Shown piece by piece: positions 7,503-64,000 of a stretch of 64,000 bases of DNA. Source of the stretch: Octopus vulgaris. Taxonomy: Eukaryota. The notes under the pieces were generated by a model. It searched no databases, was not told the origin of the DNA, and saw only the letters and a list, made by a program, of their open reading frames with translations. The stretch covers positions 34,410,001 to 34,474,000 of the forward strand of contig OX597833.1 in NCBI GenBank assembly GCA_951406725.2. Direction: 5' to 3'. Position numbers and translations under genes: made by a program. Position 1 is the first letter of the stretch. Every line of letters starts with the position of its first letter.

Positions 7503-8320
7503 AGCGGAGGGAAAGGACATGGACCCCACCTTTCGGTTTCTTTTTTGTTGGGGTTTTTTTCGATCTTTTTTTTTTCTTTTTTTTTTTTTTTTTGCAAAAT
7601 ACATAGAAAAATATGGAGATTATGATTCTGAAAAAAAATTTGTAAAATTTCAATTTTTCAAAAATAAATAAATATCATCCCCTCTACTCCGCCAGCGCAT
7701 TTTGACAGAAAGTGGACATGTGGTTGAGGGTCCCTTGGAATTAAGAGAAGTAAGTAAACAATTAGTTTTTTTGCACGTACACACACACACAACAGAATGA
7801 CATTAAAAAAATTCTTTCTTTTTTGGTAATTCGTATTTAGAAAGTGGATCTTCGGTTTGGCTGTTGTTTCTAGCTTGTCAAACTTTCCGGCTAGAGCGTA
7901 CATAAAAGTTGAAGATTTTGAAAACCCCCAAAACACGCTTTCAAAATTTTAATTTTCTCCTTCTCTACCCCTCTCCGGGAAATTAAAATTTTGAAAACGT
8001 GATTCGATGTTTAGCTGCTGTTTCTAGCATGTCGAGTTTTCTGTTTATAAACTTTTTACGTCTGCTATTTTAGTAGGAGGGGAGGGGTGTTTATGTACTC
8101 TCTTTCTCTCTTTTCTCTTTTACTTGTTTCAGTCATTTGACTGCGGCCATGCTGGAGCACCGCCTTTAATCGAGTAACTCGACCCCGGGACTTATTCTTT
8201 TGTAAGCCCAGTACTTATTCTATCGGTCTCTTTTGCCGAACCGCTAAGTGACGGGGACGTAAACACACCAGCATCGGTTGTCAAGCAATGCCTGGGGGAC
8301 AAACACAGACACACAAACAT

Positions 8321-8361
<41 letters not shown>

Positions 8362-8821
8362 TACGACAGGCTTCTTTCAGTTTCCGTCTACCAAATCCAC
8401 TCACAAGGCATTGGTCGGCCCGGGGCTATAGCAGAAGACACTTGCCCAAGATGCCACGCAGTGAGACTGAACCCGGAACCATGTGGTTGGTTAGCAAGCT
8501 ACTTACCACACAGCCACTCCTGCGCCTTTACTCTTTACTCTTTGTATTTATTTATTTTTTTTTTAATTGAAATTTTACAATTTTTCAGAATCATAATCTC
8601 CGTATTTTTCTACATATTTCACACACACACACACACACACACAAAATTCTTAAAATAGTGAAAAACTGGGCGATGGGAATATAAATTTTGAAATGCCGAT
8701 CTTTTTAACAGATTCGGAATCTCCGCAGTCGAAAAGATTTTTTTCCGTAGCAGGGGGGGGGGGGGAATGAAATAAAATAAATAACCGAAAGGGGGTGCGG
8801 TCCATGTCCTTTACCTCCGCC
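7503..8821. mobile_element. Non-autonomous DNA element with long imperfect TIRs (hAT-like), carrying a nested SINE
   Basis: Ends gcggagggaaaggacatggacc...tttcggtt and aaccgaaa...ggtccatgtcctttacctccgc are inverted; inner arms about 7598-7657 and 8564-8619 are also inverted; 8-bp direct repeat CTATATTC at 7495-7502 and 8822-8829; second copy at 30286-31035. Confidence 0.75.
8101..8527 (-). mobile_element. Young full-length tRNA-derived SINE (cephalopod OK/OR-like family) with internal (TA)n
   Basis: Minus-strand head AGGCGCAGGAGTGGCTGTGTGG (A box) ... GGTTCAGTCTC (B box); 3' tail gactgaaacaagtaaaagag; near-identical copy at 61205-61639; degenerate copies near 1750-1970, 9945-10290, 10450-10660, 17410-17570, 26420-26570, 33620-33880, 41390-41585 and 56350-56500. 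Confidence 0.85.
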
Positions 8822-20245: not shown

Positions 20246-21967
20246 TTAATCACAATTATTATTTCCATCAATATTTTCATCTTGCTTCTCTCTTTTCAAT
20301 ACTTTTTCTTTACGGTGTAATCTGACTGCTTCAAAGAAGCGGTCAGAAGTAATACTACCAGGGAAGACAGGTGAACTAGTACCATTGTAACTAACTGGAC
20401 TGTTTGGACATTCAACCTGTTCAGAATAAAATTTGGTGATTTCTTCTTCAAGAGTCACTAAGCTTTCCTTCTTATCAGAGTCAAATAATTCCTGTTGGAA
20501 AGATGTCACAGTAGTTTGGTCTGGTGGAGCTGAGGTCACTATGTTTCTATCTAAACGCTCATCTAATTTATTGTCTGCAGTGATTTTATGTTTAATTTTG
20601 TTCTTCTGTGCAGTGTTTTCCTTTTGTGCACAATGTGCACTTTTCCGATGTAAAGCTAGATTACCCGACTGAGTGAATACTTTTGAGCAATCTTGACATT
20701 TAAAAGGTTTGGTGCCAGTGTGCACACGCATGTGGGTTGTGAGGTGGGCAGATAGGACAAATTTCTTTTCACAGAAGTTACATGCAAAAGGCCTCTCACC
20801 AGTATGCACTCGTGTATGGGCATCAAGATGATTCTCGTCTATGAATGATTTTGGACAAAATGTGCAACGATAGGGTCGAAGTTTTCCTTTCTCATCCCTC
20901 TTATCAGTATTGTCTATATTATAACGACAACAACGTTTATGCTTTGCTAACTGACTTGAACGTGCAAAGAAACGGTTGCACCCTGGGAATGTACACTGAA
21001 ATGGTTTCTCACCAGTATGAGTTCGAGTATGGACAGCCAAATGGCTAGAGTCAACAAAAGATTTCTCACAGTGGTCACATTTGAAGGGTTTCTCACCTGT
21101 GTGAGAACGGATGTGGAGAGTTAAATGACTGGACTGAGCAAAACTTTTATGGCAGTGTTCACACCGATAAGGTCGTTCACCACTGTGCTTGCGAAGATGA
21201 ACAATTAACTGGCCAGCATGAGTAAAAGACTTGGAACAAATGTCACAGATATGAGGTTTTACACCTGAATGTATTTTGGCATGATGTGTTAAGTCACTGG
21301 ACTGAGTGAAAGATTTGCCACAGTGTTCACATTTATAAGGTCTGTCACCTGTATGAGAACGCATGTGGACAGTGAGATGGCCTGAATATGTGAACTTTTT
21401 CTGGCAAAGCTTACACTGAAATGGTCTTTCACCAGTATGCACTCTCATGTGTGCAGCCAACTGACTTGAATACGCAAAAGCTTTATCACACATGTCGCAT
21501 TTTTGAGACTTTTCATTCGAGTGTGTTTTCTGGTGTGTCACATATGCACGAAACAGAGGGAACACCTGATCACACTGCTCACAAGGGAACACAACTTTGT
21601 TTTTATGCATCGATTTCTCATGATGTGCCAGCTTTCCTTGAGTGGAAAAGATATCTTTGCATTCGAAGCACTGGTAGACCTTGGGGGGCTTTGAATGAAC
21701 TTTCCTGTGGAGATTGAGGTAAAATGGTTTGGTGAACATTTTAGGACAGAGGTCACATTGGTACGGTTTATTTAGTGGATGGACTTGTTTACTATTTGAC
21801 ATTTCACTTGAAGCAATTATCACTTCTGGTGATGAAGCTCTCTCATCTTCTACAGAAACAAATTCACTGCTATCATTGTCCTTTGTCTGCAAGGAAAAAG
21901 AATAGTCTTTGTTCTCAAGAAAGTCTTCAACTGAAGTAATGGTATAACCTTCCATTTTGATCCACAT
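20246..21967 (-). CDS. C2H2 zinc-finger transcription factor, 573 aa, 13 fingers in one coding exon
   Basis: Intact ORF with 12 C2H2 fingers, one C2HC-type finger (CTFPGC...HKRCC) and TGE(K/R)P(F/Y) linkers; candidate 5'UTR splice acceptors on the minus strand at 22028-22029 and 22261-22262. Confidence 0.93.
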   Translation of the reverse strand: MWIKMEGYTITSVEDFLENKDYSFSLQTKDNDSSEFVSVEDERASSPEVIIASSEMSNSKQVHPLNKPYQCDLCPKMFTKPFYLNLHRKVHSKPPKVYQCFECKDIFSTQGKLAHHEKSMHKNKVVFPCEQCDQVFPLFRAYVTHQKTHSNEKSQKCDMCDKAFAYSSQLAAHMRVHTGERPFQCKLCQKKFTYSGHLTVHMRSHTGDRPYKCEHCGKSFTQSSDLTHHAKIHSGVKPHICDICSKSFTHAGQLIVHLRKHSGERPYRCEHCHKSFAQSSHLTLHIRSHTGEKPFKCDHCEKSFVDSSHLAVHTRTHTGEKPFQCTFPGCNRFFARSSQLAKHKRCCRYNIDNTDKRDEKGKLRPYRCTFCPKSFIDENHLDAHTRVHTGERPFACNFCEKKFVLSAHLTTHMRVHTGTKPFKCQDCSKVFTQSGNLALHRKSAHCAQKENTAQKNKIKHKITADNKLDERLDRNIVTSAPPDQTTVTSFQQELFDSDKKESLVTLEEEITKFYSEQVECPNSPVSYNGTSSPVFPGSITSDRFFEAVRLHRKEKVLKREKQDENIDGNNNCD

Positions 21968-22779
21968 GTGCAGAATAGTATAATAAATTATATATCACTT
22001 AGGCATATTGAAAGAGTATGAAACTACCTGAAGATATACATAATAGGGGTAAAAAAGAGGTATTTTCTTTCCATTTGATTTTGTGGTTTTTTAATGCCAG
22101 TTCTAAACCAAAGAACTTAATGGTCAGAAATCGGTTTACAGTTATATGTATACTTTAACTTTCTTGAGATGAAAGGATCAAGAAGGAAGAAATTCAAATC
22201 TTCTTTCTTATATTGGATTACTTTGATTGTCTGGGATTTCAACATTTTAACCAATTGGATCTGAAGAGAAAGAGAGAGAGAGAGAAAAAAAGCACAATAA
22301 TTAAAGAAAATAAAAATATTTGAATAATATTTTTTTTTTTATTTAACAACATTTTTAGTAGTAAAAGTGAAGTTATTGTTAAATTGTAATGAATTACTGG
22401 TGCAAGATGGCACAAGATGAATCATGAAAATCAAACAGTAAAATGGATGCAAATATATTTAATGTAGTAAGCTGAGATATTTTAATTAATTAAAATTGTG
22501 CTATAATGAGAAAAAACTATTATTACTATATTGGCCAGTTCTGGTAAAGACAACTCCCAGAGGCGGTGGAGATTGAACCTCATGTTTAGAAGTACTTTTG
22601 GCAGTCTAACCATTACTAGATAAGTGGAGGAGTATATACGATTTTTCTGAATGAACACTGAGTGTGTTAAAATTTAAATGACTGCAAGAAAATACACAAG
22701 AATGTATGCTGTATGAAACAATCAGTAAATGAGTTGTAATACTAAGTCTGTTACAGAAATGCATTACTTCATCATGCTA

Positions 22780-35867: not shown

Positions 35868-37149
35868 GGCAGTTTGTCTGTCTGTGTGTCTGTCAGATTG
35901 TACCCTCACCCTGACCACGGCTTTCAACCGATTCTAATGAAACTTGACACACACATAGCCCAATGTCATAATGCAAAACTAACGCAGCGAAAATTTTGAA
36001 AAGTTCCCCCAGTTCTGAAAAAAAATCGATAAATTCGGCATAGGGTCGAGAATCTAAGCTTATCATATGCAACACATTTTCCGTTGTAGTTTTCGCAACT
36101 TGCAATCGATTTTCACCAAACTCATGGTGATGCTTAATGTTACCCTAAGGAACTTAATTCTGACGTTAGTTTTCCATGCAATACCTTACCATCAGAAAAA
36201 ATCGATAAAATCATGCCATTTTGGGAAATCGCATTCAAATTCAAGATGACATATTTTCAACAATATCTTTAACAAATTGGCAGGAATTTTTTTTGAAATT
36301 CACAGCGAGCATCATGTCTGCTCCAAGTAGCTATATGGCCCTTTTGATTCCAATAGGATACGTTATTACTGGAAAAAAATCGGTTAATTACATCATATGT
36401 GGCACACATAGCAAACCAATTTTTCTGCGAAAGTTCACATAGATTTTCCTTACACCGATGTTGGACATCAAGTTTGCATTAAATGTCAAACTAATGCAGT
36501 TAACAAGTATTGGGAGAAATCGACAACACCATATCACTTTGAGACCGACCATGCGAACCCTACAAAACTGACTTTTGTTAAATAGTTCGCAGATTTCAGG
36601 CGATTTAGTCGATTTTTGCCGCTTCAGCTAGGAACGTCGTATACACAGAAGTATTGGAGTGAAGAGAAGACGTTGCAACCTACACATGCGCCTTCGTTCC
36701 CTAGAGGGAAAGGACTAGATCGGCATTAGTCGTTGCCTACAAGAGGCTCCCGAGCCCCCTTTCGCTAGACTTAAGTTAGGATTAGGTAGGGCTTAGCTGT
36801 GGTCCGAACCCAACTTTTGTTCGGGGGGGGGGGGGGCGGTGTCAAAAGGGCCGGCATATGCAACCTTATCACCTCTACCTGTCAAACTCCCAACCCATGC
36901 GTTCTCGTCGTGACATTGATCCCGCAGAACTGGGTTGGGTGTGCTAAACAAAACCAGAAAATGCACTTTGACTGTCATAGATTTTCTTCATGCATGCAAG
37001 GGAACGGTGCCTTGAATGCCTTAATGCCTTTTAGGCTTCATTTTACAAAATAACGGTTCAATGAGTACAAAAATGGGTAAAAAGATAAAGGGCATTGCTT
37101 ATCGACAAAGTTTCTTACATACCCGGGCAACGCCGGGCTATGCTGCTAG
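35821..37149 (+). mobile_element. Non-autonomous Helitron, copy 1
   Basis: 5' TC(TA)n start (inside a microsatellite, so approximate), GTCT repeats, 3' hairpin CCCGGgcaacgCCGGG followed by CTAG|T at 37146-37150; shares modules with 44561-45359. Confidence 0.8.
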
Positions 37150-37165
37150 TATATATATATATATA

Positions 37166-38299
37166 AGAACCTGTCCTTAATTTCTTCAGGGTTGGTCATG
37201 GTGGGGGCATAAGCGCTGATGATGGTCGCACTAGTCTTGTTTCCAAGTGGGAGCTGCATCTTCATCAGCCGATCGTTGATACCCTCGGGGGAGCTTTCCA
37301 GTTTCCTCACGTTTACTGACTTGATGGCAAAACCAACACCAGCCTCACGACGCTCTTCGCTGCTGCGACCACTCCAAAAGAAAGTGTAGCCGCCGCCTGT
37401 CTCTGTCAGCTGGCCTTTGTCCACAAGGCGGGTCTCGCTCAGTGCTGCGATATCGACATTGTATCGGCTCAGTTCTCTGGCCACCAGGGCAGTTCGTCTC
37501 TCTGGTCTGTCCGCTTTGGTGTTGTCAAGCAGAGTTCTCACGTTCCAAGTTGCGAAAGTGAGCACCTTTGTTCGTTTTCTTTCTTTGTTTCGACCGCTTT
37601 GAAAGGATCCCCGCCAGCCGCGGTTTGCTGACCAGGGTGAGGTGAGGCAGGCTATGTTTAGGGCAACCTTTTCTAGCCCCGTCCTCATGCTGCGGAGGCG
37701 AGCAGAGCGATCCTGAAGAGGGCTGCTCGGTCACTCAGGAGGGTGCCGGACTCCACTGCTGCCTCAGTTCAGTGAGGGGCGACCACATGTCCTGAGCCGC
37801 CTGTGTGTGGGTTCACGACTGCAGCTCCCAGTGTATCCTCACCTGCTACTTCGCCGTTTCCCCATCGCTACAGGACTTTGTGATGTTGGTGTCATGATGT
37901 CATGACGTGCGCGTGACTTGGATTATAGTGAGGGTGACTTGCGCAGGATCAGCCTCACTCTCTCGTCCTGGTGCGCCGGATCCAGTGGCAAGACAAAGTC
38001 AAGACGGCTGGGGGTAGACCAGGATGCAGGAGCTGCCGGAAGGTGGCACGCATGGCGCAATCCAACCGCCTTAGGGGCTCCACTCCGGATTTATATAGGT
38101 TTTTGGATGGCCATTGACTCATGAGAGAGTTCCTCTGCCCTTTGACAGGTTTTGTTTTTAGTCCTGCTGGGTGTCCAAATCACCCTCCTCACCAAGAAAT
38201 CTTGGTGGGGTTGCCAGTTTAGTCGCCAACGACCCGACCATGTAACAGGTTGTACTGGGTTACATGTTACCAGTAGCTCCAAGCGGAGATCTGACACAA
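37166..38299 (-). mobile_element. Inverted 5' part (5'UTR and APE N-terminus) of a near full-length RTE LINE
   Basis: ORF 37146-37688: TFATWNVRTLLD...DIAALSETRL...YTFFWSG...GVGFAIK...ISAYAPTMTNPEEIKDRF; this continues on the + strand at 38306. Confidence 0.92.
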
Positions 38300-38305
38300 A
38301 TATAT

Positions 38306-41168
38306 AACCCTGAAGAAGTTAAGGACAGGTTCTATGAGGAACTCGTCTCCCTCATCACGTCAGCCCAGCCTGGGAAGCTCATCCTCCTTGGGGACTTTAA
38401 CGCCCGTGTCGGGACTGACCACCAAGCTTGGCATCGCGTACTGGGAAAGCAAGGAATCGGAAAGTGCAACTACAACGGGCAGCTCCTCCTGCGGGCGTGC
38501 GCCTCTCATGATCTTACCATCGCCAACACCTTGTTCCGTCTGCCAACACGCAACAAGACATCATGGATGCATCCACGCTCCAAACACTGGCATCAGATAG
38601 ATTACGTTATCGTCAGGGCGAAAGACAGGGACGTGAGACTGGTCAAAGCCATGTGTGGAGCTGATTGCTGGACGGACCATCGCCTCATTATCTCCAGGAT
38701 GGATTTCTACATCCAACCTAAGAGAAGACCACAGGGTCAGAAAGTGACGAGGAAGCTTAACATCACGAAATTAAAGAACTAGCTGACTGCACAAGATCTC
38801 CAGTCACGTATGGACAGCAAGCTGTTGGATATTCGGAATGACCAGTCCAGCATCGATGAGCAGTGGGAATCATTCAGGGACACGGTTCATTCCATCGCCC
38901 TTGAAACTCTAGGCTAAGTTACGAGGAACCACCAGGACTGGTTCGACGAAAACGACCAGAAAATCCAAAAGCTCCTGGAAGAGAAACGCCGTCTGCTGCG
39001 GGCCCACCAAAATGACACCACCTGCATGGCAAAGAAGGCTGCTTTCAACAACATTCGCAGCACAGTCCAGGCAAAACTCCGCCTCACGCAAGACGCATGG
39101 TTAAGCGCCAAGGCGGATGAGATTCAGGGATACGCAGACAAACACGATACCAAGAAATTCTACGAGGCGCTGAAAGCTGTCTATGGACCGCAGTCCTCTT
39201 TTGGATCAACCCCCCTACTCAGCTCGGATGGAACCTCACTCCTGACTAACAAGAGGCTTATTCTGGAGAGATGGGCGGAGCATTTCAACATCGTGCTCAA
39301 CCGACCAGCCCAGATCAACGAGGAAGCCATCGCACGACTCCCCCAGGTGCCGACAAACCACGAGCTGGCTGTTCCCCCTGCCGTCGAGGAAGTGAGCAGT
39401 GCCATCAAAAAAATGTCCACCGGCAAAGCTCCAGGCTCTGACGCCATCCCTGCAGAGGTGTTCAAGTCGAGCGGCCCCCACCATGATCAGTCAGCTCACC
39501 AGCCTGTTCCAGTCGATGTGGGACAGGGAACAACTCCCTCGATTTCCGGGACGCAACAATCGTCCACATTTATAAGCGGAAAGGAGATCGGCAGTCCTGC
39601 GACAACCACCGAGGAATCTCCCTCTTGTCCATAGCAGGCAAGATCCTGGCCTGAGTCCTGCTTGACCGCCTTCTGGAACACTTGGAGCAAGGCCTTCTCC
39701 TTGAGAGCCAGTGTGGCTTCCGCGCGGGTCGAGGGACCACTAACATGATATTCGCCGCCCGCCAGCTCCAGGAGAAATGCATGGAGTAGCACCTTGACCT
39801 CTGCATGACCTTTGTTGACCTCACCAGGGCTTTCGATACAGTCAGTCGGGAGGGACTCTGGAAGGTCATGGGAAAATTTGGTTGCCCCAGCAAATTTATT
39901 GCAATTGTCCGCCAGTTCCACGACGGAATGACAGCCAGAGTCCTTGAAGACGGCAACTCATCTGAAGTCTTCCAGGTGACCAACGGAGTCAGGCAGGGCT
40001 GTGTCCTGGCCCCAACACTGTTCAGCATCATGTTCTCGGCAATGCTGTCCGACGCCTTCAGGGACTGCAAGTCCGGTATCGACATCAAGTACAGGACGGA
40101 CGGGGATTTTTTCAACTCCAGAAGATTGCAGGCCGTCACAAAGGTGAGGGAGACAGTCGTCAGAGACTTTCTCTTTGCTGACGACTGCGCCCTTAACGCA
40201 ATCGATGAGCAGGAGATGCAGCTCGGGATGGACAGGTTCTCATCAGCCTGTGACAACTTCGGTCTCACCATCAGTGCCAAGAAAACCGAAGTGATGTTTC
40301 AGCCAGCCCCCGGCAAGCAATACCATGAGCCTCAGCTAAAGGTGAACGGACGGATCCTACGAGCGGTGGAAAACTTCACCTACCTGGGCAGCACTCTCTC
40401 CTGCAATGCCAACATAGATGCTGAAATCATCAACAGAATCTCCAAGGCAAGCAGCGCGTTTGGGAGACTGCGAAAGAAAGTCTGGGAGCGGAGAGGAATC
40501 AGCCTCAACACCAAGCTGAAAGTCTACCGGGCAGTCGTGCTTACCACCCTACTATACGGCTGCGAGACGTGGACTGCTTACCGAAGGCACGAGCGCCAGA
40601 TAAACCACTTCCACCTCAGGTGTCTTCGGAACCTCCTTCACATCCGCTGGCAGGACAAAGTCCCAGACACGGAAGTTCTGAAGCAGGCAGATCTCCCTAG
40701 CACCATCACGATCATGCGCAAGGCCCAGCTGAGATGGGCAGGCCACGTCTCCCGCATGTCCGACACTCGCATCCCAAAACAGCTCTTCTACGGTGAACTC
40801 AGCCAGGGCAAACGCAAAGTTGGAGGGCAGAAGAAGCGCTTCAAAGACAGTCTCAAAGTCTCTCTCAAAGACTTCTCCATCGGCACAGAGACTTGGGAGA
40901 CACTTGCTGCCGACCGCTCATCCTGGCGCAGCGCAATCACCACAGGAGCAAAGACAGCCGAGGAGAGACGGATTCAGTCAGCAGAACAGAAACGCCAGAT
41001 GCGGAAAGCCAGAGCCACCTGCACCAATAGCACAGCCCCTACCCACTTCTGCCCCACCTGTGGGTGGGGCTTTCTTGCCCGGATTGGCCTAACCAGCCAC
41101 CTCCGGTCTCATAGCAGCAATTCCACCAAATGATGTCAATGGTCATCTTCGAACCCGAAGGACGAACA
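38306..41168 (+). mobile_element. RTE/BovB-like LINE main body (APE C-terminus, RT, C-terminal C2H2), lightly disrupted
   Basis: NPEEVKDRFYEEL...LGDFNARVG...IDYVIV...TDHRL; KAPGSDAIPAEVFK; FVDLTRAFDTV; GVRQGCVLAPTLF; FLFADDC; CPTCGWGFLARIGLTSHLRSH; ends in (TA)n; few stops and frameshifts; markedly GC-richer than the flanks. Confidence 0.95.
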
Positions 41169-53110: not shown

Positions 53111-53218
53111 ATGCCTAGCTTAATTATCAATACTAATTTACCTCGGGCGAAAATCCCACAAGATTTCTTGTCCAAAGCTACTGAAATGATGTCGAAGCAG
53201 ATTGGCAAACCATCAAAG
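53111..53218 (+). CDS. MIF: Macrophage migration inhibitory factor, coding exon 1
   Basis: MPSLIINTNLPRAKIPQDFLSKATEMMSKQIGKPSK (108 nt) followed by donor gtaagt; catalytic Pro after Met, TN and GKP motifs. Confidence 0.92.
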
Positions 53219-54247
53219 GTAAGTATGTTAAAGAGCGAATTATTTTATTTAAAGATTTGCGCGTGGTATTGATTGTTGAGTGGCAGGAGCAGTTTTTACT
53301 TTTCTTTTTTTAGTTTATTTACCGTTTCAAAATATTAAAGTTCCCCTAACGAAGAAGGAAGTACATCTACATCATTCCCACCTTTCTTTTTCTAGATATA
53401 GATTACTTTAAACTATATTAACCAATGTGTCCTACTTTTTTTCTATAATGATAGGGCGCGATTTGACGGAGATTTATTTGGTATTTCAAGCAATTCTAAC
53501 TTCCGCATTAGGACAGCTTCGTTGTCTCGAAATATATGCTTGTTAATAAGGAGAATGAAAGAAAAAGAAAAGAAATAGAATGAAACCAAGTAAGCTATTG
53601 TGACATACGGAAAAAGCCTACTGTCTCTATTTCCCAATCATTGTGTTTATCTAGGACCACTCTAATCAACGTGTATTGTCTTTTTAAGACGTTTGGATTT
53701 GATTTGAGGAGATTAGGTTGCTATTTGGAACAGAACATGCGACCAAGCAGTCGCTTTTCTTTTTTGTTCGCAGTAATCGTTGCACCCAGTTTTGATTCCC
53801 CGTTGAAACTAAGCTCGATTCTGTACGAGCTAACAACAACCTCTACATAGCCTCCACTTTTCTAGAAATCAGGTCCTACTATCTTTAATAGGGAAATGGT
53901 GCATTGCGTCTGTAGTGTACCCCTAATGAGACGAGGTTGTCTCTACAAGTATAACTTTGGTAATAAATTTAGAAGATCAGGGTTGAATTTGACCTTTGTT
54001 TAAATATAAAATCGTGAAAAATTTGTAAATGTTTGCTTTTCTTATTTTTATATGTGTACCAAATGCTTATCTAAAAGAAAAGAAAAACACTATTTTACTT
54101 AAAGCTTTTACAAAGTTTACAAATATTATTACGTTATCATAAGTGATAAAAATTCGGTAATTGTTCAGTTTAGTGATATTAAAAAATTACGGAGATGTAC
54201 TCGCATAGCAAGAGATTTGATCTGAGATCGTGTGCTGGAACGAAAAC

Positions 54248-54420
54248 AATTGCTGCGTGGAAGGTGTTTGTAAGCCATTTAAGAAACACACAAAAGCCGT
54301 TCGATTCACTTCAACATTTAAGTTTAATTTGTCAAAATATTAAACTTAAATGTTGAAGTGAATCGAACGGCTTTTGTGTGTTTCTTAAATGGCTTACAAA
54401 CACCTTCCACGCTGCAATTG
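54248..54420. repeat. Near-perfect hairpin (about 80-bp arms) in MIF intron 1, same family as 23727-24162
   Basis: caattgctgcgtggaaggtg...tttaagtttaat [ttgtcaaaat] attaaacttaaa...caccttccacgctgcaattg. Confidence 0.85.
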
Positions 54421-54721
54421 TTGATGTCAAAAAGTAAATAAAAAATGAAGGGGAGATAACTAGTAAAGGAACGTGCATAAGTCAACATAAATATTGGTTA
54501 TTATTTACTTTGGAATTGATCAGATAGGCACGTGGAAAACCAGCGGGACCGCAATTCATTGTTCGTGAAATTGAAATCGTCAACCATGAATCAATTTTGG
54601 AATATTACCTATTTAGCCGAATAACGAGACCAGATTCTTCCAGTGGTTGGCAGGGCGACGACTAATAATGAATTTATACGCGTGCAAAAATTGTAACTCT
54701 CCATGTTAGCTTACTGCAGTC

Positions 54722-54950
54722 GGCGAGCTGGCAGAAACGTTAGCACGCCGGGCGAAATGCTTAGCGGTATTTCGTCTGCGTTACGTTGTGAGTTCAAATT
54801 CCGCCGAGGTCGACTTTGCCTTTCATCCTTTCGGGGTCGATAAATTAAGTACCAGTTACGAACTGGGGTCGATGTAATCGACTTAATACCTATATCTGTC
54901 CTTGTTTGTTCCCTCTGTGTTTAGCCCCTTGTGGGTAATAAAGAAATAAG
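54722..54950 (+). mobile_element. Full-length tRNA-derived SINE with Nin/Deu-like domain
   Basis: Head GGCGAGCTGGCAGAAACGTTAG, B box GAGTTCAAATTCC, core gactttgcctttcatcctttcggggtcgataaattaagtaccag; degenerate copies near 16915-17110, 45730-45950(-), 57060-57230(-) and 59010-59150(-). Confidence 0.8.
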
Positions 54951-57517
54951 TATTAGTTGTTTAACAGTAAGTTGACTTACGTATGGCCCTTTACTAGTTA
55001 TCTCCACCTTAATTTTTATTTACTTTTCTAATGTCACTAAACTGCACAATTACCAAAAATTCTTAATGTCTTTCAAGTAGTGAACTTAATGGTGAATTAA
55101 TCGAAGCAGCCACTCTCCTTTTACAATCTATGGTTGTGCTCTAATTAACAATTCATAATGGCAATCTGAATGCTAACAATTTTTTTTAATTTTATGAATT
55201 GCTGCAAAGTATACGAAATCCCAAGCCTGCTTCTCCACTCAATAGAATTTAGGACCCATCTTCCACTGGTTAAAATGAGGCTTTTATAGCTTAATGCATC
55301 TTTAGTAAATCAGTAGATTGTTTAATCTCTTTGTTGTCCTGACTGTTTCACACATACTAATTATCATTTTCTGAATATTTTACATTTTTATTTTGAATAT
55401 AATATCAGGATGTTGAGCACCTAGAGCAGCCCTATAAATTGCAAGCTCCTTCTCCCAGCTTTACAAAATGAGTCCTCTTTCTCAATGTCTTCTGAAACAG
55501 TTAAAAAATTATCAACTAGTAAACAAGAAATCTATGGTTTTATGTTAATGTATATCACTGTGTAAATCAGCAATAAGGCAAACTTTGAAATGTTTTACAC
55601 CAAATCATGTGACTGATTATATCACCACACAACACCCTCAGCTCCCCCATTCTGCCCCTAATCTGTCCAGCAGTAAAATCATCTGCTCCCTTTATTATTA
55701 AGTTTTCGTATTTTTAATTGGATTGAAGTTTTTGTCTAAATTGTTTAAAAATATCTTTGCCATCCTAGGTGATTGCCTCATTTCCTGAGTGTGAAAATAT
55801 TGCAGAGCATAGTCATATAACTTTTAATCAAATAGATTCTCTTTATTTAAATTCTTGCTCGTTTTTCGTTCTTTGAAATTATATCAGAGAAAGTTGAGAG
55901 AGATCTCCTTGTCTTTTATAGGCATTCCCAAATCTTTTGGTATTTAGCTTAAAATTGTGTTGGTCAAAGCCTGTAAGAAAGATTTAGATGAGAGAATTCT
56001 AATGGAGTTGCACCCCTAGAGAAGAGTATGGCAAAGCTTTTAGCTAAAAATCTTGACAAGATGAAAGAGGATTAACAAACAAAATTAGGCAAGGTTGGAC
56101 AGTATTCATGACCTCTGCAGGTTTTCGTAAACTGATGCCCAGCCCAAACATCTGCAGGAAAAAAAATGTGGGAGGAAATAGCTGAGGTATCTCATTTGAA
56201 TGCTTGGAATATGCTGGACATGTTTTCATAAGACCTAGAAGCAAGGAACAGCACTTATTTGATGGTGATGTTCATTTATAACTATCAAGGGATGTGGAGA
56301 CAAAGACACAGGTGTGTGTGTGTGTGTGCACGCACACACATAAATATGACTTTTCTTTCAGTTTCTGCTTAACAAGTCCACTTATTAAGCTTTTAGTAGC
56401 CTGGGTCTATACAAGACACTTGCCCAAGGTACCATGCAGTGTGAATGAACCTGAAATCATATGATTAGGAAGTGAAACTTTTAACCATACTGTCAAGCCT
56501 GCACACAAGCACATGTGTGTGAAGCCGTCACAAGATGTCATCTTATTGTGAAGCTTTTCATTTATAGTGACTTCACTTGTTCAAAAAGGAGGAAGGGTTT
56601 AATGTAACATGTATTGAATGTAGTTTTGTGCTATTGAGATATCGTTATTGTAATTCGTTTTTGAGGACTCTATTTGTAGAATGAGTTGTCCTGGTGGCAC
56701 TTGTGTATAGAAGGGTAAACAGGAATGAATAGTATTATCATCTGCATTGAATTGTTTGTGGTTATTAGTAACATTGGGAAAAATGTTGAAGGCGTAATCA
56801 GTTGTTTCTGTATACAAAATTTAATGAGCTGGAAAGACTGCCATCAGTACAGGCTTTGATAGAGCAGTGTGATAAGAAACTTTTGATGTAAAAATGAGAG
56901 GAAGAGTGTCTGCAGTATAGAATTTAAAATGGAGGGAGTTTAAAACTGTTGAGTTATGAGGCTTTTGTGTTTGATAAGTTATCTTTCAAAATCATGATGA
57001 GTGTGTGGTTTAAAAGTTGTTCTTAAGAATTATATAATTTTCTATCTTTTCTAGCAAAAGCACAAGGTCTTAAATTTGGGTGAGGTTAGTTGATACCATC
57101 AAGCCCAATATTTGATTGCTACTTTATTTTATCAATCTCAAAAGGGTGTAAGGCGAAGTTGACTTCAGTAGGGTTTGAACACGGAATGTAAAGAACCAGA
57201 ATTAAATACCAAAAGACAGATTTTCTGATGCTTCATTATTTTATTTGTATTATTTTGTCCTGTAATTTGAGAAGGAATAGCAGTTGTTGTGTAATCAATA
57301 ACATAGTTGTCTGGCAACCTAAGGATACATGATTCAAGAGCTGTTAGTGGGCCTATTGCTTTCTTTCTTTTTATCTGCCTCAAATTGGTGTTTATGAGGT
57401 TTCAAATCATTTATTACTATTGTTGGAGTTATTGAAGGGAAGTTGCAAACTGTAATTGCTGAACTTTTTGTTATTATTGTTATTGCACTGTTAATGCTGC
57501 TATTATTGTTGTTACAG

Positions 57518-57690
57518 TATATTACCATTTGTGTCCATCCTGACCTAATAATGAGCCATGGAGGGTCGGATGACCCATGTGCTTCAGTTCATGTTACTTC
57601 TATTGGAAAACTAGGGCCAGATGTCAACAAGGACCATTCAGCAAATATTGGAAGCTTTATCCATGAAACTTTAAAGATTCCAATGGACAG
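57518..57690 (+). CDS. MIF: Macrophage migration inhibitory factor, coding exon 2
   Basis: ttacag| YITICVHPDLIMSHGGSDDPCASVHVTSIGKLGPDVNKDHSANIGSFIHETLKIPMD(R) |gtatgt; 173 nt, phase 0 to phase 2. Confidence 0.93.
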
Positions 57691-58369
57691 GTATGTTTTC
57701 TTTGTTATTATTTAATCCTTGATTAGCCCTAATCCACCAAATCTATGATCAAATATGTTGTTGTTGAATGAACTTTGCAGGTTGTTATTATTTAATTCTT
57801 GATTAGCCCTAATCCACCAAATCTATGATCAAATATGATGTAAACATGACCATTCAGTCTTTTTCCTTGATGTAGATATCTACTACATTAATGTTAAACA
57901 ACCTTATTCAGCGAGTCCACCTTTTAAGATGGTAAAATTTGATTTGAAGAAAATTTGGTTGTTCTTTCTAGCAAGATAACTAACTGTATATAAGCTCTTT
58001 CATTGGTATGTTTTTGTTGTTGATGTGTGAACTATTCAGATTTTCTCTAACTGTTATACATAAGGTAAATGCTTGTCAGCAAGAAGTTGATTACTTTACT
58101 TGGAAGAAAATTCTAGTAAGGTTCAAGTTGAATGACTCTTACACTCCTACTACATGGAGTCCAGTAAGAATGTATGATCATGTGCATAATACCAACATGG
58201 CCCTCTATTTCTGAAAGGCTTTTCAGTTTGTTGGCATATCTAGTCAATTGAAGAGCAATAAGATGAAACTGCAATTTGGATAAGCAGTCCCTGTTTCTCA
58301 AATAACATAATATATACATGTGTGTGCGTGTGTGTAGATATATATATGGCTATATATATAGATAATGTG

Positions 58370-58685
58370 TCAGTGATTAGTGTCAGGCCCACAATCATGA
58401 AGTAGTTTGATTCCCAGATTGAGCTGTGTGTTGCGTTCTTGAGCAAGACACTTTACTTCACAATGCTCCTATTTACTCAGCTATAGAAATGAGTTACAAT
58501 GTCACTGGTGCCAAGCTGTATTGGCATTTTCTTTTCCCTTGGATAACATTAGTGGTATGGAGAGGAAAGGCTGGTATACATGGATGACTGCTGGTCTTCC
58601 ATAAACAACCTTGCTTGGACTTGTACCTCAGAGGGTGACTTTCTTAGTGCAATCCCATGGACATTCATGACTGAAGGGGGTCTTT
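58370..58685 (+). mobile_element. Degenerate CORE-type SINE in MIF intron 2
   Basis: tgcgttcttgagcaagacactttacttcac...ctcagctatagaaatgag resembles the CORE consensus, after a decayed tRNA-like head. Confidence 0.5.
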
Positions 58686-59508
58686 GTATACAAATATGAG
58701 AAAGAGATATTTACTGTAACAATTGCACTCTCTGTTCTAATTTGCTGATTGTGTACCACATACCTGTGATTCATCTGCTAGTCTTCTCTCCTTACTATTA
58801 TTCTCCAAATCATCATTTTGTCTGAACACTCTCTTAGGTCTAATATTTAGAAATATTAGAAACAAGACATTGAATTTGTGTGTAGATGCATGCAATTTGT
58901 ATATGTGCATGTTTGTGTGCATGTGTACATGCATGCATCTGTGTATGTACAGATCAGTCTTTTCATTGTTTTTGACTTTAATAAATTAGTGAAATTTGTA
59001 AACACAATGCCCCGAAACTGATGGCCACATCAACTCTTGTATGAAACTCTGGAAAGGCAAAAGATAAAGTTGACTTTGACAGGATTTGAAATCTGAATGT
59101 AAAGCAAGGTAACTAAATACTGCAAGCCATTTTCTCTACCATTCCACTAACTCCACCACTCCACCACCCTTATAAACATCATCATCATTTAATGTCTGTT
59201 TTCCATGCTGGCATGGATTGGACAGTTTGACAAGAGTTGGAGAGCTGACCAGAATCCAATTGTCTGTTTTGGCATGGTTTCTATAGCTGGATACCCTGCC
59301 TAACACCAACCACTTTACAGTGTGTTGAGTGCTTTTTATAGTTCACTGACATGGGTGCACTTAAGTAGCACTGGCACCTGCAAGACAAAGACCTCTCAGG
59401 TGGGAGGGGGAGTAGGGGTATGGCCACAAAGGACATGTGTGTATGGATGGCTGCAATTTTACTTAGCTTGATGCGTCTTAAGTAAGATGTCTTATTTTAC
59501 ACTTTTAG

Positions 59509-59572
59509 GTTTTACATACAATTCAATGACTTACTTCCTTCTAATGTTGGTTATAATGGTACAACATTTTAA
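59509..59572 (+). CDS. MIF: Macrophage migration inhibitory factor, coding exon 3 (protein totals 114 aa)
   Basis: ttttag|G TTT TAC... gives (R)FYIQFNDLLPSNVGYNGTTF*; phase fits exon 2; AATAAA at 59638-59643 and 59659-59664. Confidence 0.92.
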
Positions 59573-59702
59573 AATGTTAGCTGAAGCTTCACACCAAGTC
59601 TCAATTTATACAGAAGAAAACATTAAAGACATGGAAAAATAAACAAAGAAAATAGTAAAATAAAAAATATGAATTATTTTTGTTTTTCTTGAATTTTATT
59701 TT

Positions 59703-61080
59703 TTAAGATCTACCAATAATAAATTGCCATGTCTTTCCTTTGTTCACAGAACTACATTTTTCCTGAATCCCACCTTCACACTTCCATATATGCGTACTAA
59801 TCAACATACAAACCTCATTGTTTTCTTGTTTCATTGGTTCTTCTGTCGTAAGATCAATTTCTAGTTGTATTCTTACTTTCATGCATTTTCTCTTTTTCTT
59901 TTCTGGTGATGCTAGGTCAGTTTCCATGTAGAGGAATCTTTTTTTTTTTTTTTTTGCTTTGGTGTGTAACATATTCTCTTGATGTATTTGTTAATGTTTT
60001 TTTTTTCATATGGTATAGTCACATGAGAGGATTTAATTCAATCATGCCCCCAATCTTTTAATTTTGGCATTGGTTTGTAAGTCTTGTAGTAATATACTCT
60101 AACTATTGCATCTCTCTTCTGCATGATGGTCCATAGTTCAGTGTTGCTTCTGTTGAAACATGGTGTTCTTTTTTGTATCCTTTCTAGTTGATGTCTAATG
60201 TTTATGCATGTTGGTGTTCCCTCCAGGATGCATTTTGTTTCTTTGTTGTTTCTTGAAACCACATTTCATCAGTGTAGATTATTGTTTTGTTGATGCAGCT
60301 TCCGAATGTAAAATTATATGATGCTTGGCAACACACATTCTTCCACAGTTCATGAGTCCATTCTGTATTGAACACAGTATGTAACTTTTTCTAGAATTTC
60401 TGACACCCATTATGTGTAGTCCTTTTTTTTCCCTCTTTTTTTGTATGTGACAGATTTCAAATGTGTGTTGTGCAAATTTAGCTGAGTCAATGTTATATTG
60501 CAACCATTTGTCCAATATGTTTAGTGATGTTTGTACATCCCCAGTATTGGTTGTTTGCATTTGTGAGGAAGAATTCCTTTTTCTCTCTTATTTACTCTCA
60601 TTTTGGTGTTTAGTTCCAATGCGAGTTCTTGTTGCTGCACTTTATATGATGGTGCTGAGATTTAGTGTAGATTTGTAAATGCTGTCCTATGTTTCTTTGT
60701 ATTTTTGTTTATCTGAAGTTTTTACAAAGTGTTACATATTTTCAGGAGTTTTTTTAATAAAGTTGTATTTCTTACCTTGTACGATGTCTTGGTTTTTTTA
60801 TTATGTGCTCTTTGTCACTTTCCTCTTGTAAAACATTTTTTTGCGAGTCTGCATCAAGCATGTTTTCCAGGATGACCCAATGTTTTTTGGTGTCTGTGGT
60901 GAGGTAATTAGCAAATCTGTATGGATTGAATATTTTTTGACATGATAGTTTGTAAGGTTTGTTTCCTCTTTGTTGTAGTAACCTTTTCACCACCATGAAG
61001 TTGTAGTTGTTGTTGGGGTGCTTTCTGTGCCATGTAATAACATGAAAGTGGTATGTTGGAACAGTGTTTAAAGTTTTCAG
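59703..61080 (-). pseudogene. Endogenous parvovirus/densovirus-like NS1 (HUH endonuclease plus SF3 helicase), frameshifted
   Basis: YHFHVI (HUH, HFH at 61042-61050) in frame with FANYLTTD (motif III-like); Walker A GVRNSRKS (60384-60407); NFTFGSCINKTIIYTDE (Walker B 60265-60282); KCILEGTPTCINIRHQ...RTPCFNRSN (B' and C); C-terminal PEKKKRK. Confidence 0.85.
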
Positions 61081-61412
61081 ATGTCATTCCAGTTGCTATT
61101 CCTGTATTGATTGTTGGCATTTTTTGTGGATGGCTGGCGCAAGCATAATTTGATTCAATTTTAATGAAATATGTAGTTTCGAAAGTAAAGTATAATGTTG
61201 ATTTCTCTTTACTCTTTTTCTCTTTTACTTGTTTCAGTCATTTGACTGCGGCCAAGCTGGAGCACCGCCTTTAGTCGAGCAAATCGACCCCGGGACTTAT
61301 TCTTTTTAAGCCCAGTACTTATTCCATCGGTCTCTTTTGCCGAACCGCTAAGTGACAGGGACGTAAACACACCAGCATCGGTTGTCAAGCAATACTAGAG
61401 GGACAAACATAT

Positions 61413-61467
<55 letters not shown>

Positions 61468-62955
61468 CATATATACGACAGGCTTCTTTCAGTTTCCATC
61501 TACCAAATCCACTCACAAGGCTTTGGTCGGCCCGAGGCTATAGCAGAAGACACTTGCCCAAGGTGCCACGCAGCGGGACTGAACCCGGAACCATGTTGTT
61601 GGTTAGCAAGCTACTTACCACACAGCCACTCCTGCGCCTGTTGGTTTTGGTAATAAAGGGCAATTAATTAATATAATTTCTGGTGGGCCCTCTGATGTGT
61701 ATGCCACATTGTTTATTAGTGTTCTATCTGCTACTGTGTATATTTCAGATGATTGTACTTGTAGGTCTGTTGTTGTCACTGTGATGTCTTTTCTGAATTC
61801 TTGGTAATTGAAAGCTAGATCAGACACTTCTGTCCTGGCTGAGTCTTGTTTCTTTTGTTCTGACTCTTAGATGATTGCTCTTACAATTTAATATAGCATT
61901 GTTGCCATCTGTTCCGTATGTTGGTGCCATGGATACATCTAGACATCCATCCAATATAATATCTCTCTCTCTAGCTGATATGGTGTTGAATGCTGGAGGA
62001 AAATGTATGGTTAAGTTGTCACGTAAGGTGTTGGTTAGGGGTTTTCTAAGTAATGACTTGTTGAACCATTTGCGTACATATGTATCCCCTTGTCTAATCT
62101 TTTTAACTGAGTTCATCTCTCTCCAATCGTGGAAGTCTGTGATCAAAGTTGTGCATTCTTGAGTGTCTGCTGTAATTTTGCATTCTGCATTTCTGTTCAT
62201 TACCATTATTGGTGCTGAATAACTGTATTCATATTTCGGTAGGAACACGTGTTATGCTGTTGTGGGTTGTATTTCCCTTGTTTGGTATGTGAGATAATTT
62301 AAGTAGGTTACCAAACCCAGTGTATTTGAAGGTTTCAAGGATTGGAATGGCCACTTCGTCATTGTTTTTTGTTTCCTGCTGTAATGTTGTCACTTTTGAA
62401 ATTCATGCTTCTTATTTTGTGTGAAGTTGCATTTGATAGTGATTGTTTGAACTTTATTGGTTAACAAGTAGAGTATGATGTAGTCTTCAGCTTATACTCT
62501 TCCCCATCTGAAGTGTCCTGTGTTGTGCATTCCTTTTTCTCTCCATTTGATATTTTGTGAATTTTTCTTTGGTTGTATTCATGTCACATGATTTGATCAT
62601 GTTTCTAAACTTTCTGCTGAATTTAAGTATTTGGGTTTTGCTCCTTTCCATCCATTGTTTTCTCCTCTTCTGCCTCTGAATTTTGTGACTGTTGATTTAA
62701 AGCTATTGCAGTATCAGTATTATGTCCAGAGACAGCAATATTATTAGTATTGGTTTCTGGTGGTCTGAAGTAGTTATCAAGTCTGAGATAGTGCTTAACA
62801 GTGATTTCTCCTGTTGCAAGTATGCCAGTTGGACTGGTCTGTATAGCACTTTTGATGAATTTTTTGTTTTGTTTGCCTCCTGAGTATCTATGTCTGTGGG
62901 CATAATTCAAGTAGTGTTCTTTTGCAATTAGATCATGTTCGTTTTGTAGAGGCTC
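60908..62955 (-). pseudogene. Endogenous parvovirus-like capsid (VP1u PLA2-like remnant plus major capsid), frameshifted and SINE-interrupted
   Basis: EPLQNEHDLIAKEHYLNY...EANK/KFI resembles the PLA2 PxNxxDxxAxxHDxxY...AD..F motif; IRQGDTY resembles the LRTGD capsid motif; Thr/Asn-rich frames; the frame GPPEIILINCPLLPKPT|EKSTLYFTFETTYFIKIESNY resumes across the SINE. Confidence 0.65.
61205..61639 (-). mobile_element. Young tRNA-derived SINE inserted in the viral capsid remnant
   Basis: Near-identical to 8101-8527, including A and B boxes, internal (TA)n and the 3' tail. Confidence 0.9.
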
Positions 62956-64000
62956 TCATTGGTTGCTACATTGCTGTTAAGATCAAGTTTGATGTGACAA
63001 GCCTATATTAAAAAGTATGCTAAAGACAGACACATACCAAATGTTGACAAAGGACAGAAAATGATCTGTTGGTTGTGCTTGCATTCCAACTAATTTCTTG
63101 CACATTTTAACTTACAGTATTGATTTGTCATTTAGGTTTGGAGGCTAATACATATTTGTCAAATGCACACTACTACCTACCATGGTGTATTCTTTCTCTT
63201 CTTCCTCTAATTGAACTGAACCAGTCAGAATATAGGGCTAATACAAACTATCAACACTGCAACAAGTCAACTAGCCTACTTCTAAGTGTGATTTTACATT
63301 TTTTTAATTGCAGTTCTTTGAAATGTTTTCTTTTGACAAGAAAGTTTGTAGGAAGCCTTAATTGTTCTATGGAGCAAGAAATTACTGCGTAGATAGTACA
63401 AAATATTGCCCTCAGTCAATAGTGACTCTTAGTCATTATTGAGAAAGTGCAATAGTTTAGTTGATTAAGTATTGAACCAGTGTTTGATCTGTAACTAATG
63501 ATGCTATTGTCAACAAATAGTAATAAGGAAGGAAAAATAATCATGTTATCTTCCAATGCTATATATTATAATGCATTGAATTTGTCAGGCAGCAGGACAC
63601 ATGAAAGCAAAGTATAGACAATTTGATGATGGAAAGTACTGAACTAACAAAAAAAAAATAGTTTAGGTTACTAAGAGAGAACTTTTTCTCTCCTGCCTGG
63701 ATTTGCTTTTGTTACATATTTACTACAATTTTTGTTTAGTTGTCTACAAGTCGTTCTTTAACTGTAGTTAGGCTTTTTAAGGTAAGAACAGTTGTATGAG
63801 GATGTGTACACACATGAAGGTAGTAATTCCAAATAAAAGATGTGAACCTTTACAGCCATCCAGAATATGTTAAGGTTACAGTTAAGTTTTATGAAAAAAC
63901 AAAACAAAAACGTAAGTTTCAAATTCAATTTGATTTTTATTCATTTTGACAAATAAATATATTGAACAAAGAAATGGCATTGTGTGGAAACAAAGAAAGC

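Follow-up and report, generated by a model that had tools for sequence, protein, structure and literature searches.

A decayed endogenous parvovirus-like element beside an octopus MIF gene points to a source virus that probably had its capsid gene first

The 64,000-nucleotide stretch of the Octopus vulgaris genome that was analysed (contig OX597833.1, positions 34,410,001 to 34,474,000, hereafter the window) carries on its minus strand a decayed endogenous parvovirus-like element that is about three quarters complete and fixed in the germline. In this element the capsid (VP) gene lies ahead of NS1, an order that is probably native to the source virus, judging from sister elements in the same genome. 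Endogenous parvoviral scraps are already known from invertebrates, cephalopods included; what is new is the capsid-first architecture.

A sequence-only reading of this DNA had reported a near-complete parvovirus- or densovirus-like genome. All of the motifs that it quoted are present in the minus-strand translation at the places given, but the description as near-complete was not confirmed. Roughly a quarter is gone, namely the promoter, the termini, the beginning of the capsid gene and some 0.45 kb where capsid and NS1 meet. The element begins within the phospholipase A2 (PLA2) region, has no promoter or terminal hairpin, and encodes no intact protein. Its CpG ratio is 0.19 versus approximately 1.0 in the sister elements L021, L022 and L014, and its decay looks neutral. 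Homology nevertheless stands out from shuffled sequence, with tblastn matches of the window to the relative P0151 (93.6 bits), to a paralogous capsid frame (105 bits) and to a paralogous PLA2 region (44.3 bits) each exceeding 40 of 40 shuffles. The best Pfam family for the paralogues is Parvo_NS1 (PF01057), above cut-off, with an E value of 8e-17 for L014 as compared with weaker matches of that element to PPV_E1_C (4.5e-5) and DUF5906 (4e-4), and the best PDB match is AAV Rep. Reads bridge both host-virus junctions in four of four DNA runs, which carry four organism labels. It could be argued that the element is non-parvoviral (a CRESS Rep or a Polinton/D5 helicase), an assembly artefact or a contaminant, since none of the window's own fragments (0 of 11, and 0 of 3 window pieces in a second set) has a relevant Pfam match and a CRESS Rep fragment occurs elsewhere in the genome. 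This explanation is scarcely credible, being refuted by the Pfam ranking, the parvoviral PLA2 and the bridged junctions. The proposed origin, an ssDNA virus of parvovirus type fossilized in the germline, is supported.

The NS1 gene is recognizable on the minus strand from its nuclease domain to its stop. The nuclease domain, with the HUH motif and the motif-III tyrosine, lies at 60772..61053 as aligned with P0154, P0157, P0174, P0019, P0022 and L048. It is followed by the linker and SF3 helicase up to a degenerate Walker A (60336..60797, matching P0151 in a frame with four stops), by Walker B, B' and C in two further frames (60038..60330, with P0151 matches of 84% across 25 aa and 46% across 70 aa) and by a C-terminal tail with stop, an open frame of 95 aa with approximate boundaries at 59703..59990. 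At the nucleotide level the 3' region (59859-60383) is 64% identical to L022. The helicase set claimed from the sequence is supported by the P0151 match. The HUH motif was likewise upheld, as the spacing from HFH to the motif-III tyrosine is 48 residues both here and in the full-length relative P0154, P0005 matches the same frame with a genome-wide E value of 3.4e-5, and a paralogue matches it at 1.9e-4, although direct scores to distant relatives are marginal (32.3 bits versus P0154 against a shuffle maximum of 31.2, and a score versus P0174 reached by 3 of 40 shuffles). An accidental overlap of the HUH reading with the end of VP was ruled out by L048 and P0154. The nuclease sits N-terminally on the same protein as the helicase. 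In an SF3 tree built by a quick method from 77 rows (drawn from the 75 highest-ranked of 150 listed proteins and four cluster members, with 14 short rows dropped and no classified parvovirus sequence among the rows), the window pieces fall in the same clade as the paralogues with SH-aLRT support of 100; the row EVE_L054, a long-branch outlier that is probably out of frame, was disregarded. A word-seeded protein search with the window helicase piece returned no match.

Upstream on the same strand lie the remains of VP. The 5' end of the element (62740..62961) is a remnant of the VP1-unique region, where a PLA2 domain is found in most Parvoviridae genera, and it is detected in a genome-wide search at an E value of 9.4e-5. 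The PLA2-like remnant noticed earlier is therefore real, but it consists of the helices without the calcium loop, and its catalytic position reads EHYLNY rather than NEHDL, with H-Y where H-D is expected. The corresponding region of paralogue L021 matches PF08398 at 1.5e-6, above cut-off. The gene body (61640..62740, three frames with stops) corresponds to residues 68-505 of the L021 VP frame with a best E value of 1e-33, and a last surviving segment (61064..61204), whose tblastx match to L021 (E 8e-10) ends at 61064, is joined straight to NS1. The capsid-like frames reported earlier are hence homologous to paralogous VP and may encode the single jelly-roll T=1 capsid protein of Parvoviridae. 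Two models reached pLDDT values of only 39.6 and 35.1, a Foldseek fold search was empty, the capsid sequence matched nothing in the Pfam coat families, PDB or Atlas, and a word-seeded protein search with a paralogous VP piece found no match, results that speak neither for nor against such a fold. The putative capsid identity of these frames rests on the PLA2 and on position.

VP precedes NS1 on the same strand in all three two-gene elements found in the genome (that of the window, L022 and L048), which are 57-67% identical in nucleotides and share no flank except host repeats. The order NS before VP was seen in none of the 17 elements examined (three two-gene, five VP-only and nine NS-only); because the genome searches set no more than a minimum on the number of copies, one with NS first may have escaped detection. 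Described monosense parvovirus genera carry NS 5' of VP, and ambisense Densovirinae carry the two on opposite strands; neither arrangement is found in any of the three two-gene elements. The earlier statement that this combination of domains typifies Parvoviridae is overstated, given that about a quarter of the element is missing and that its two genes stand in the opposite order to those of usual monosense genomes. Parvoviruses form concatemers in replication and integration, and an NS-then-VP virus could yield the observed order if each element had been cut from a head-to-tail concatemer so as to combine VP from one unit with NS from the following unit. The spacers between VP and NS, 97 and 131 nt long and kept in L022 and L048, could then be eroded termini, and that of L022 does contain a small stem-loop (equalled by 7 of 200 mononucleotide and 19 of 200 dinucleotide shuffles). 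Such a history would, however, require that the same junction was captured three times independently and the unit itself never. The spacers are also short and weakly folded, faring no better than dinucleotide shuffles (19 and 180 of 200), and the lack of NS-first copies among the 17 weakens it further. Additionally, the strong hairpin is found elsewhere, in a conserved stretch before VP that has host DNA and no NS upstream of it. We consider this origin very unlikely. Three independent capsid-first elements with none NS-first, weak spacers and a conserved hairpin before VP together argue that the order is probably native, as stated at the outset.

The sister elements also retain signals that the window copy has lost. 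A TATA box lies upstream of VP in all three elements scanned, and L022 has the sequence TATAAAT approximately 43 nt upstream of the NS start; the same scan detected no TATA in the L048 spacer. L021 and L068, located on different chromosomes, start at the same conserved stretch before the VP TATA (89% over 95 nt), which folds strongly (z of -4.6 and -3.8, 0 of 200 shuffles). At the other end, NS closes with a poly(A) signal, beyond which host DNA begins, in both the window element and L022. Both termini together are retained in no element.

These ends bear on whether the source virus, with a parvovirus-type NS1 and PLA2 capsid, was circular. If the origin lay after NS and ahead of VP on such a circle, copies opened near it would always read VP then NS. 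The origin motif consensus of circular Rep-encoding viruses is NANTATTAC, and a nine-base match to it occurs in the conserved pre-VP stretch of L021 and L068, on the 3' side of the predicted loop; furthermore, the contigs in the cluster of a distant relative measure 4859, 4868 and 9572 bases, lengths that would correspond to roughly one unit and two units. Yet L021 and L068 both start at one point approximately 60 nt upstream of this motif, as a linear end would, and the motif is absent from the inspected stretches of L022 and L048. The NS-downstream and VP-upstream ends were found to share no sequence, and no copy reads from NS into VP. A circular genome is accordingly improbable. The Rep itself is not of the CRESS type, being of the Parvo_NS1 type with no Viral_Rep match for the clade. 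We favor, as reasonably probable from comparison of the elements, a linear genome in which the capsid gene came first and each gene had its own promoter, and of which the window element is a decayed germline-fixed copy; the window element likely has its capsid before NS1 because the source virus did. Its inferred layout would run from a terminal hairpin and TATA through VP1 with PLA2, a short spacer with a second TATA, and NS1 to a poly(A) signal and terminus. Parvoviruses use NS1 to nick and unwind hairpin ends, and by analogy this virus may have replicated in the same manner.

Capture of one such genome behind the MIF gene probably took place in a germ cell, after which the copy would have lost its left end and middle, gained a SINE, decayed, and then been duplicated together with MIF. 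The SINE, a host repeat within VP on the minus strand (61205..61639), is 92% identical to a copy at 8099-8527 and has very high read depth; its coordinates had been given correctly, and a 9-nt target duplication with one mismatch (61196-61204 and 61640-61648) supports them. The internal deletion of about 0.45 kb, which removed approximately 40 last capsid codons, the spacer and approximately 70 first NS1 codons, fuses VP to NS1; L022 and L048 retain the deleted portion, and the fused form is bridged by reads in all four DNA runs. The element ends on the minus strand at 59672..59700 with AATAAA after the NS1 stop and then an A-rich tract. No terminal repeats or hairpins were found at the window element, and an Rfam search gave only microsatellite noise. 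With its 5' truncation within PLA2 and its end just past AATAAA, this copy could be a LINE-made retrocopy of a read-through mRNA from the same capsid-first virus, a matter of insertion route rather than gene order. An 11-nt candidate target duplication with one mismatch does flank the element (59661 and 63009), but it is matched by 6 of 30 random stretches and so is not above chance. Sister elements keep promoters and terminal sequence, demonstrating DNA capture for the lineage, and for the window copy we regard retrocopying as somewhat unlikely.

Among the runs listed, the element is present in 20 of 24, under four organism labels, with none of the runs that hold it recorded as RNA. Host-virus junctions, decay and presence across individuals are those expected of an endogenous viral element. 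Its neighbor, tail to tail, is an intact plus-strand host MIF-family gene of 114 aa (53111..59572, exons 53111-53218, 57518-57690 and 59509-59572; PF01187, E 8.9e-16), whose stop lies approximately 130 nt from the element end and whose GT..AG splice joints are seen in the RNA-like runs X12 and X15. MIF exons 2-3 and the whole element form part of the first unit (55203..64000, plus strand) of an 11.4-kb tandem duplication (98.0%), with the second unit 18.4 kb further on, beyond the window. The SINE and internal deletion are present in both copies, which differ by 5 substitutions in 2826 viral bases. Twofold depth of the duplicated region in DNA runs X1 and X6 rules out a false haplotype duplicate. 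The MIF gene, the tandem duplicate, the further copies and the capsid-first order had all gone unremarked in the sequence-only reading.

A contig of run X15, at a depth of 122, extends from the MIF exon-3 acceptor to 59929 and so covers about 230 nt of the NS tail. This raises the prospect that the element is under selection, either because it contributes to the 3' end of MIF or because it yields antiviral small RNAs in antisense; primary piRNA-like RNAs from parvovirus-like sequences are described for starfish and anemone in PMC6085071. The runs are presumed to be RNA by guess, however, the contigs are strandless, host AATAAA signals at 59638 and 59659 precede the element, and the decay looks neutral. 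Selection is thus improbable, and the sole activity of the element is likely passive antisense read-through in the MIF 3' end.

The nearest full-length relatives are 32-36% identical. No free virus of the clade and no free relative above 36% was found, and scans of IMG/VR viral contigs and JGI metagenomes were empty. The literature covered, which lacks most subscription papers, describes neither a monosense parvovirus with its capsid gene first nor the window element. Francois et al. 2016 (PMC5013282) list helicase fragments from Euprymna scolopes and Sepia officinalis ESTs, described as branching outside known genera. In a comparison by eye with P0003, these fragments share helicase motifs with the window clade, and a cephalopod likely was the host of the source virus; a zinc-finger gene also fits an octopus. 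The cephalopod fragments in that paper are single-gene pieces of 0.2-0.8 kb without gene order, linked capsid or junctions, so that the lineage was known only as helicase scraps. The same source lists an O. vulgaris VP transcript and an O. bimaculoides NS, the latter resembling L012b, a second lineage also present in this genome, rather than the window lineage.

Like the monosense Parvoviridae (Parvovirinae, Iteradensovirus, Hamavirinae and Penbrevirinae), the octopus elements combine an HUH and SF3 NS1, PLA2 at the VP1 start, one coding strand, an inferred genome of about 4 kb and a hairpin-like end, but they differ in carrying VP 5' of NS. They resemble ambisense densoviruses, aquatic ones included, in a VP with its own promoter beside the genome end, but are one-stranded in three of three cases, unlike the opposite-strand NS and VP outlined for that group in PMC12297876. 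The Swazi bat megaparvovirus lineage, as described in PMC13426907 (approximately 6.4 kb, four ORFs), similarly has a PLA2-bearing ORF upstream of NS1 but keeps its capsid ORF after NS1. The nearest named viruses, Pot worm parvo-like virus 2 (WPR17604.1) and the Turdus and Tarsiger parvoviridae sp., have NS1 proteins 28-33% identical over the helicase with the same HUH arrangement but fall outside the cephalopod clade in the tree; these viruses, compared by NS1, may already be capsid-first.

On balance we find it about evenly poised whether cephalopods host an undescribed subfamily-level lineage that would be capsid-first, one-stranded, two-promoter and possibly circular, with at least 17 germline entries, and that survives here as a MIF antisense tail. 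For a cephalopod lineage represented so far by helicase ESTs only, these data link NS1, capsid, promoter and terminus evidence for the first time, and they offer sequences with which to look for living viruses in farmed and model cephalopods. The MIF read-through is also a testable case of an endogenous viral element transcribed antisense by a host immune gene. A native capsid-first order would mean that NS and VP cassettes are less tightly constrained as modules in parvoviruses than textbook layouts suggest, and would bear on the origin of the family from Rep and capsid modules and on the evolution of ambisense genomes.

The HUH, SF3 helicase, PLA2-like and capsid-like motifs quoted in the sequence-only reading are all present in the minus-strand translation of 59700-62960, and the minus strand of this interval is strongly A-rich relative to flanking DNA. 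The window fragments are too broken to give a relevant Pfam match, so identification was run through paralogues, and the profile check proposed by that reading succeeds for paralogous NS1 and PLA2 frames and fails for the window itself. The searched genome (2.80 Gb in 227 contigs, with the window at G000:C20:34410001-34474000) gave 8 matches to the window helicase piece. Parvo_NS1 is the top Pfam family for the longer paralogous frames (E 6e-14 to 8e-17), with papillomavirus E1 and DUF5906 far behind, and the best PDB match of paralogous NS1 is AAV Rep. A search of 1.84 billion proteins returned 582 matches. About 20 of them, unnamed and for the most part truncated, are close at 45-81% identity, beyond which identity falls to 36% among full-length NS1 proteins; the nearest named proteins are those of Pot worm parvo-like virus 2 and bird-swab "parvoviridae sp." Mapped back, the protein relatives account for window NS1 across four frames, and window VP is covered piecewise by a paralogous capsid frame. 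Helicase, capsid and PLA2 matches to the window score above 40 of 40 shuffles, the HUH region marginally so, and in alignment the HUH-to-tyrosine spacing equals that of P0154, a relative from the protein search. The putative capsid assignment of the VP gene draws on PLA2, position and size (about 600 codons in sister element L021); sequence searches, structure searches and fold models gave no evidence for or against a capsid fold. PLA2 itself differs among sister elements: L021 and L067 have an intact calcium loop and L or Y at the catalytic histidine position, and only L022 has H-D there. Thus PLA2 activity may vary within the lineage.

The element had been described as near-complete, which must be revised, as its 2826 viral bases leave roughly a quarter of the inferred 3.7-3.9 kb genome unaccounted for. 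The element is also dead. Mapped homologues require at least 4 frame changes in VP and at least 3 in NS, the 60336-60797 frame has 4 stops and the VP segments, as delimited in this analysis, have 5, and Walker A of NS1 is degenerate. The 5' end lies inside PLA2, and the calcium loop, the start codon and a TATA box are all missing. VP homology ends at 61064 and HUH begins at 61050; at this border the two-gene elements L022 and L048 carry about 40 further VP codons, a spacer and the NS N-terminus, and by our estimate some 0.45 kb is absent from the window element. The SINE (61205-61639) does interrupt VP, with a 9-nt target duplication. The CpG ratio is 0.19, compared with about 1.0 in three sister elements and 0.22 in L048, a depletion that fits long residence in methylated DNA.

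Germline integration is borne out by the host-virus junctions. The stretch is present in 20 of 24 listed runs, which come from 10 studies and carry four organism labels, one of which may be the source. Three points were examined in one DNA run per label: the junction on the capsid side, the junction on the NS side and the fused VP/NS point. Contigs bridge each of them in 4 of 4 runs, with a depth equal to that of the flanks and a sequence that differs from the window by no more than about 1%. Since junctions and fused point are common to the four labels, insertion, deletion and decay are older than the split of these labels. The window element is a real, old and broken endogenous viral element, ordinary as such. 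A second copy lies 18.4 kb away in an 11.4-kb tandem duplication (98.0% identity), which is real because depth doubles over it (103-135 vs 51-67 in run X1; 85-99 vs 47-53 in run X6). Both copies contain the SINE, and they are 5 substitutions apart in the viral part. Between the tandem units, G000:C20:34476600-34483600 holds shuffled and inverted pieces with two further MIF exon 1 copies (98.7% and 93.3%); the duplicated MIF could thus still be an intact gene.

The neighbouring three-exon, plus-strand gene, with splice joints in two RNA-like runs (presumed to be RNA) and strand taken from GT..AG, translates to an intact 114-aa MIF. Its stop is about 130 nt from the element end, the two lying tail to tail, and host poly(A) signals fall between them, before the element. 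One contig begins at the MIF exon-3 acceptor and reaches 59929, inside the NS tail, at depth 122 (636 for MIF exons 1-2; 4-10 for intron contigs), and antisense read-through into the NS tail is plausible. Elsewhere the window contains a minus-strand open frame of 582 aa (20249-21994) that encodes 13 C2H2 zinc fingers, and a GC-rich fragmented LINE with endonuclease and reverse transcriptase frames (37149-41130).

Genome searches, which give lower bounds, identified at least 17 elements of the same kind besides the tandem copy: 3 two-gene, 5 VP-only and 9 NS-only, four of the last assigned by best match and not by tree. All three two-gene elements have VP then NS on one strand, and the reverse order occurs in none of the 17. 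As the two-gene elements are 57-67% identical, with flanks unrelated except for host repeats, they derive from different viruses that inserted independently. It is improbable that they were instead cut at the concatemer junction of an NS-then-VP virus, which requires three like accidents. L048 runs continuously from VP end through NS N-terminus to HUH, the 97-nt spacer of L022 contains a TATA box some 43 nt ahead of the NS start, and a VP TATA box lies 40-50 nt upstream in all three elements scanned. The VP-NS spacers do not fold more strongly than shuffled sequence, whereas L021 and L068, which lie on different chromosomes, begin with the same conserved, strongly folding stretch ahead of the VP TATA box. 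The simplest reading is that the source virus would have had a linear genome that starts with the capsid cassette. A circular genome with its origin ahead of VP would also give this order, and a nonamer-like motif in the conserved hairpin, similar to the origin consensus of circular Rep-encoding viruses, speaks slightly in its favour; we regard it as unlikely. The weak point of the capsid-first linear reading is the absence of any observed free genome, with no free relative found in the viral-contig and metagenome collections scanned. Contigs of 4859, 4868 and 9572 bases encode one 630-aa NS1 in the P0060/P0179 protein cluster of a distant relative, which could reflect a dimer or a circle. Additionally, a short word, TGCCA/TGGCA, recurs in the hairpin ahead of VP (L021:3790-3860) and in the L022 and L048 spacers, and may be part of a promoter or a binding site for NS1.

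A quick ML tree (without classified parvovirus references; 14 short rows dropped and one bad row ignored) groups the window pieces with six sister elements and the close unnamed proteins (SH-aLRT 100, stem 1.4). Every full-length relative falls outside this clade, and L052 and L012b make up a second lineage. The NS-only L052 element of this second lineage (L052:4330-6080, contig C9) ends in AATAAA and an A-run and has a 67-nt direct repeat (92.5%) on either side, within a LINE-like frame; it resembles a retrocopied NS mRNA. At G000:C14:64.32-64.34 Mb (L012 and L054), viral fossils crowd into about 15 kb. They represent two parvoviral lineages plus a Rep of CRESS type (Viral_Rep E 8.9e-23) and lie among transposon pieces and an ankyrin-like repeat ORF, an arrangement reminiscent of a piRNA-cluster-type graveyard.

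Helicase fragments from Euprymna and Sepia ESTs are listed by Francois et al. 2016 (PMC5013282), who describe such mollusc sequences as branching outside known genera. Compared by eye, the EST motifs given there are the same as those of the window clade, which probably extends across octopuses, cuttlefish and bobtail squid and was already known at fragment level. This match, the 13-finger C2H2 gene of the window, the genome size and the type of SINE make an octopus the likely host. The literature searched contained no capsid-first monosense parvovirus; as far as is known, the described monosense genera are NS-first. The nearest precedent seen (PMC13426907) is a megaparvovirus lineage with a PLA2 ORF upstream of NS1, although its capsid still follows NS1. 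The source virus would work like a parvovirus, and membership in Parvoviridae is likely on NS1 and PLA2. The window lineage lacks the gene-order feature of the monosense and ambisense genera. The value of the window element is that, with two other elements, it testifies to a probable capsid-first lineage of cephalopod parvoviruses.
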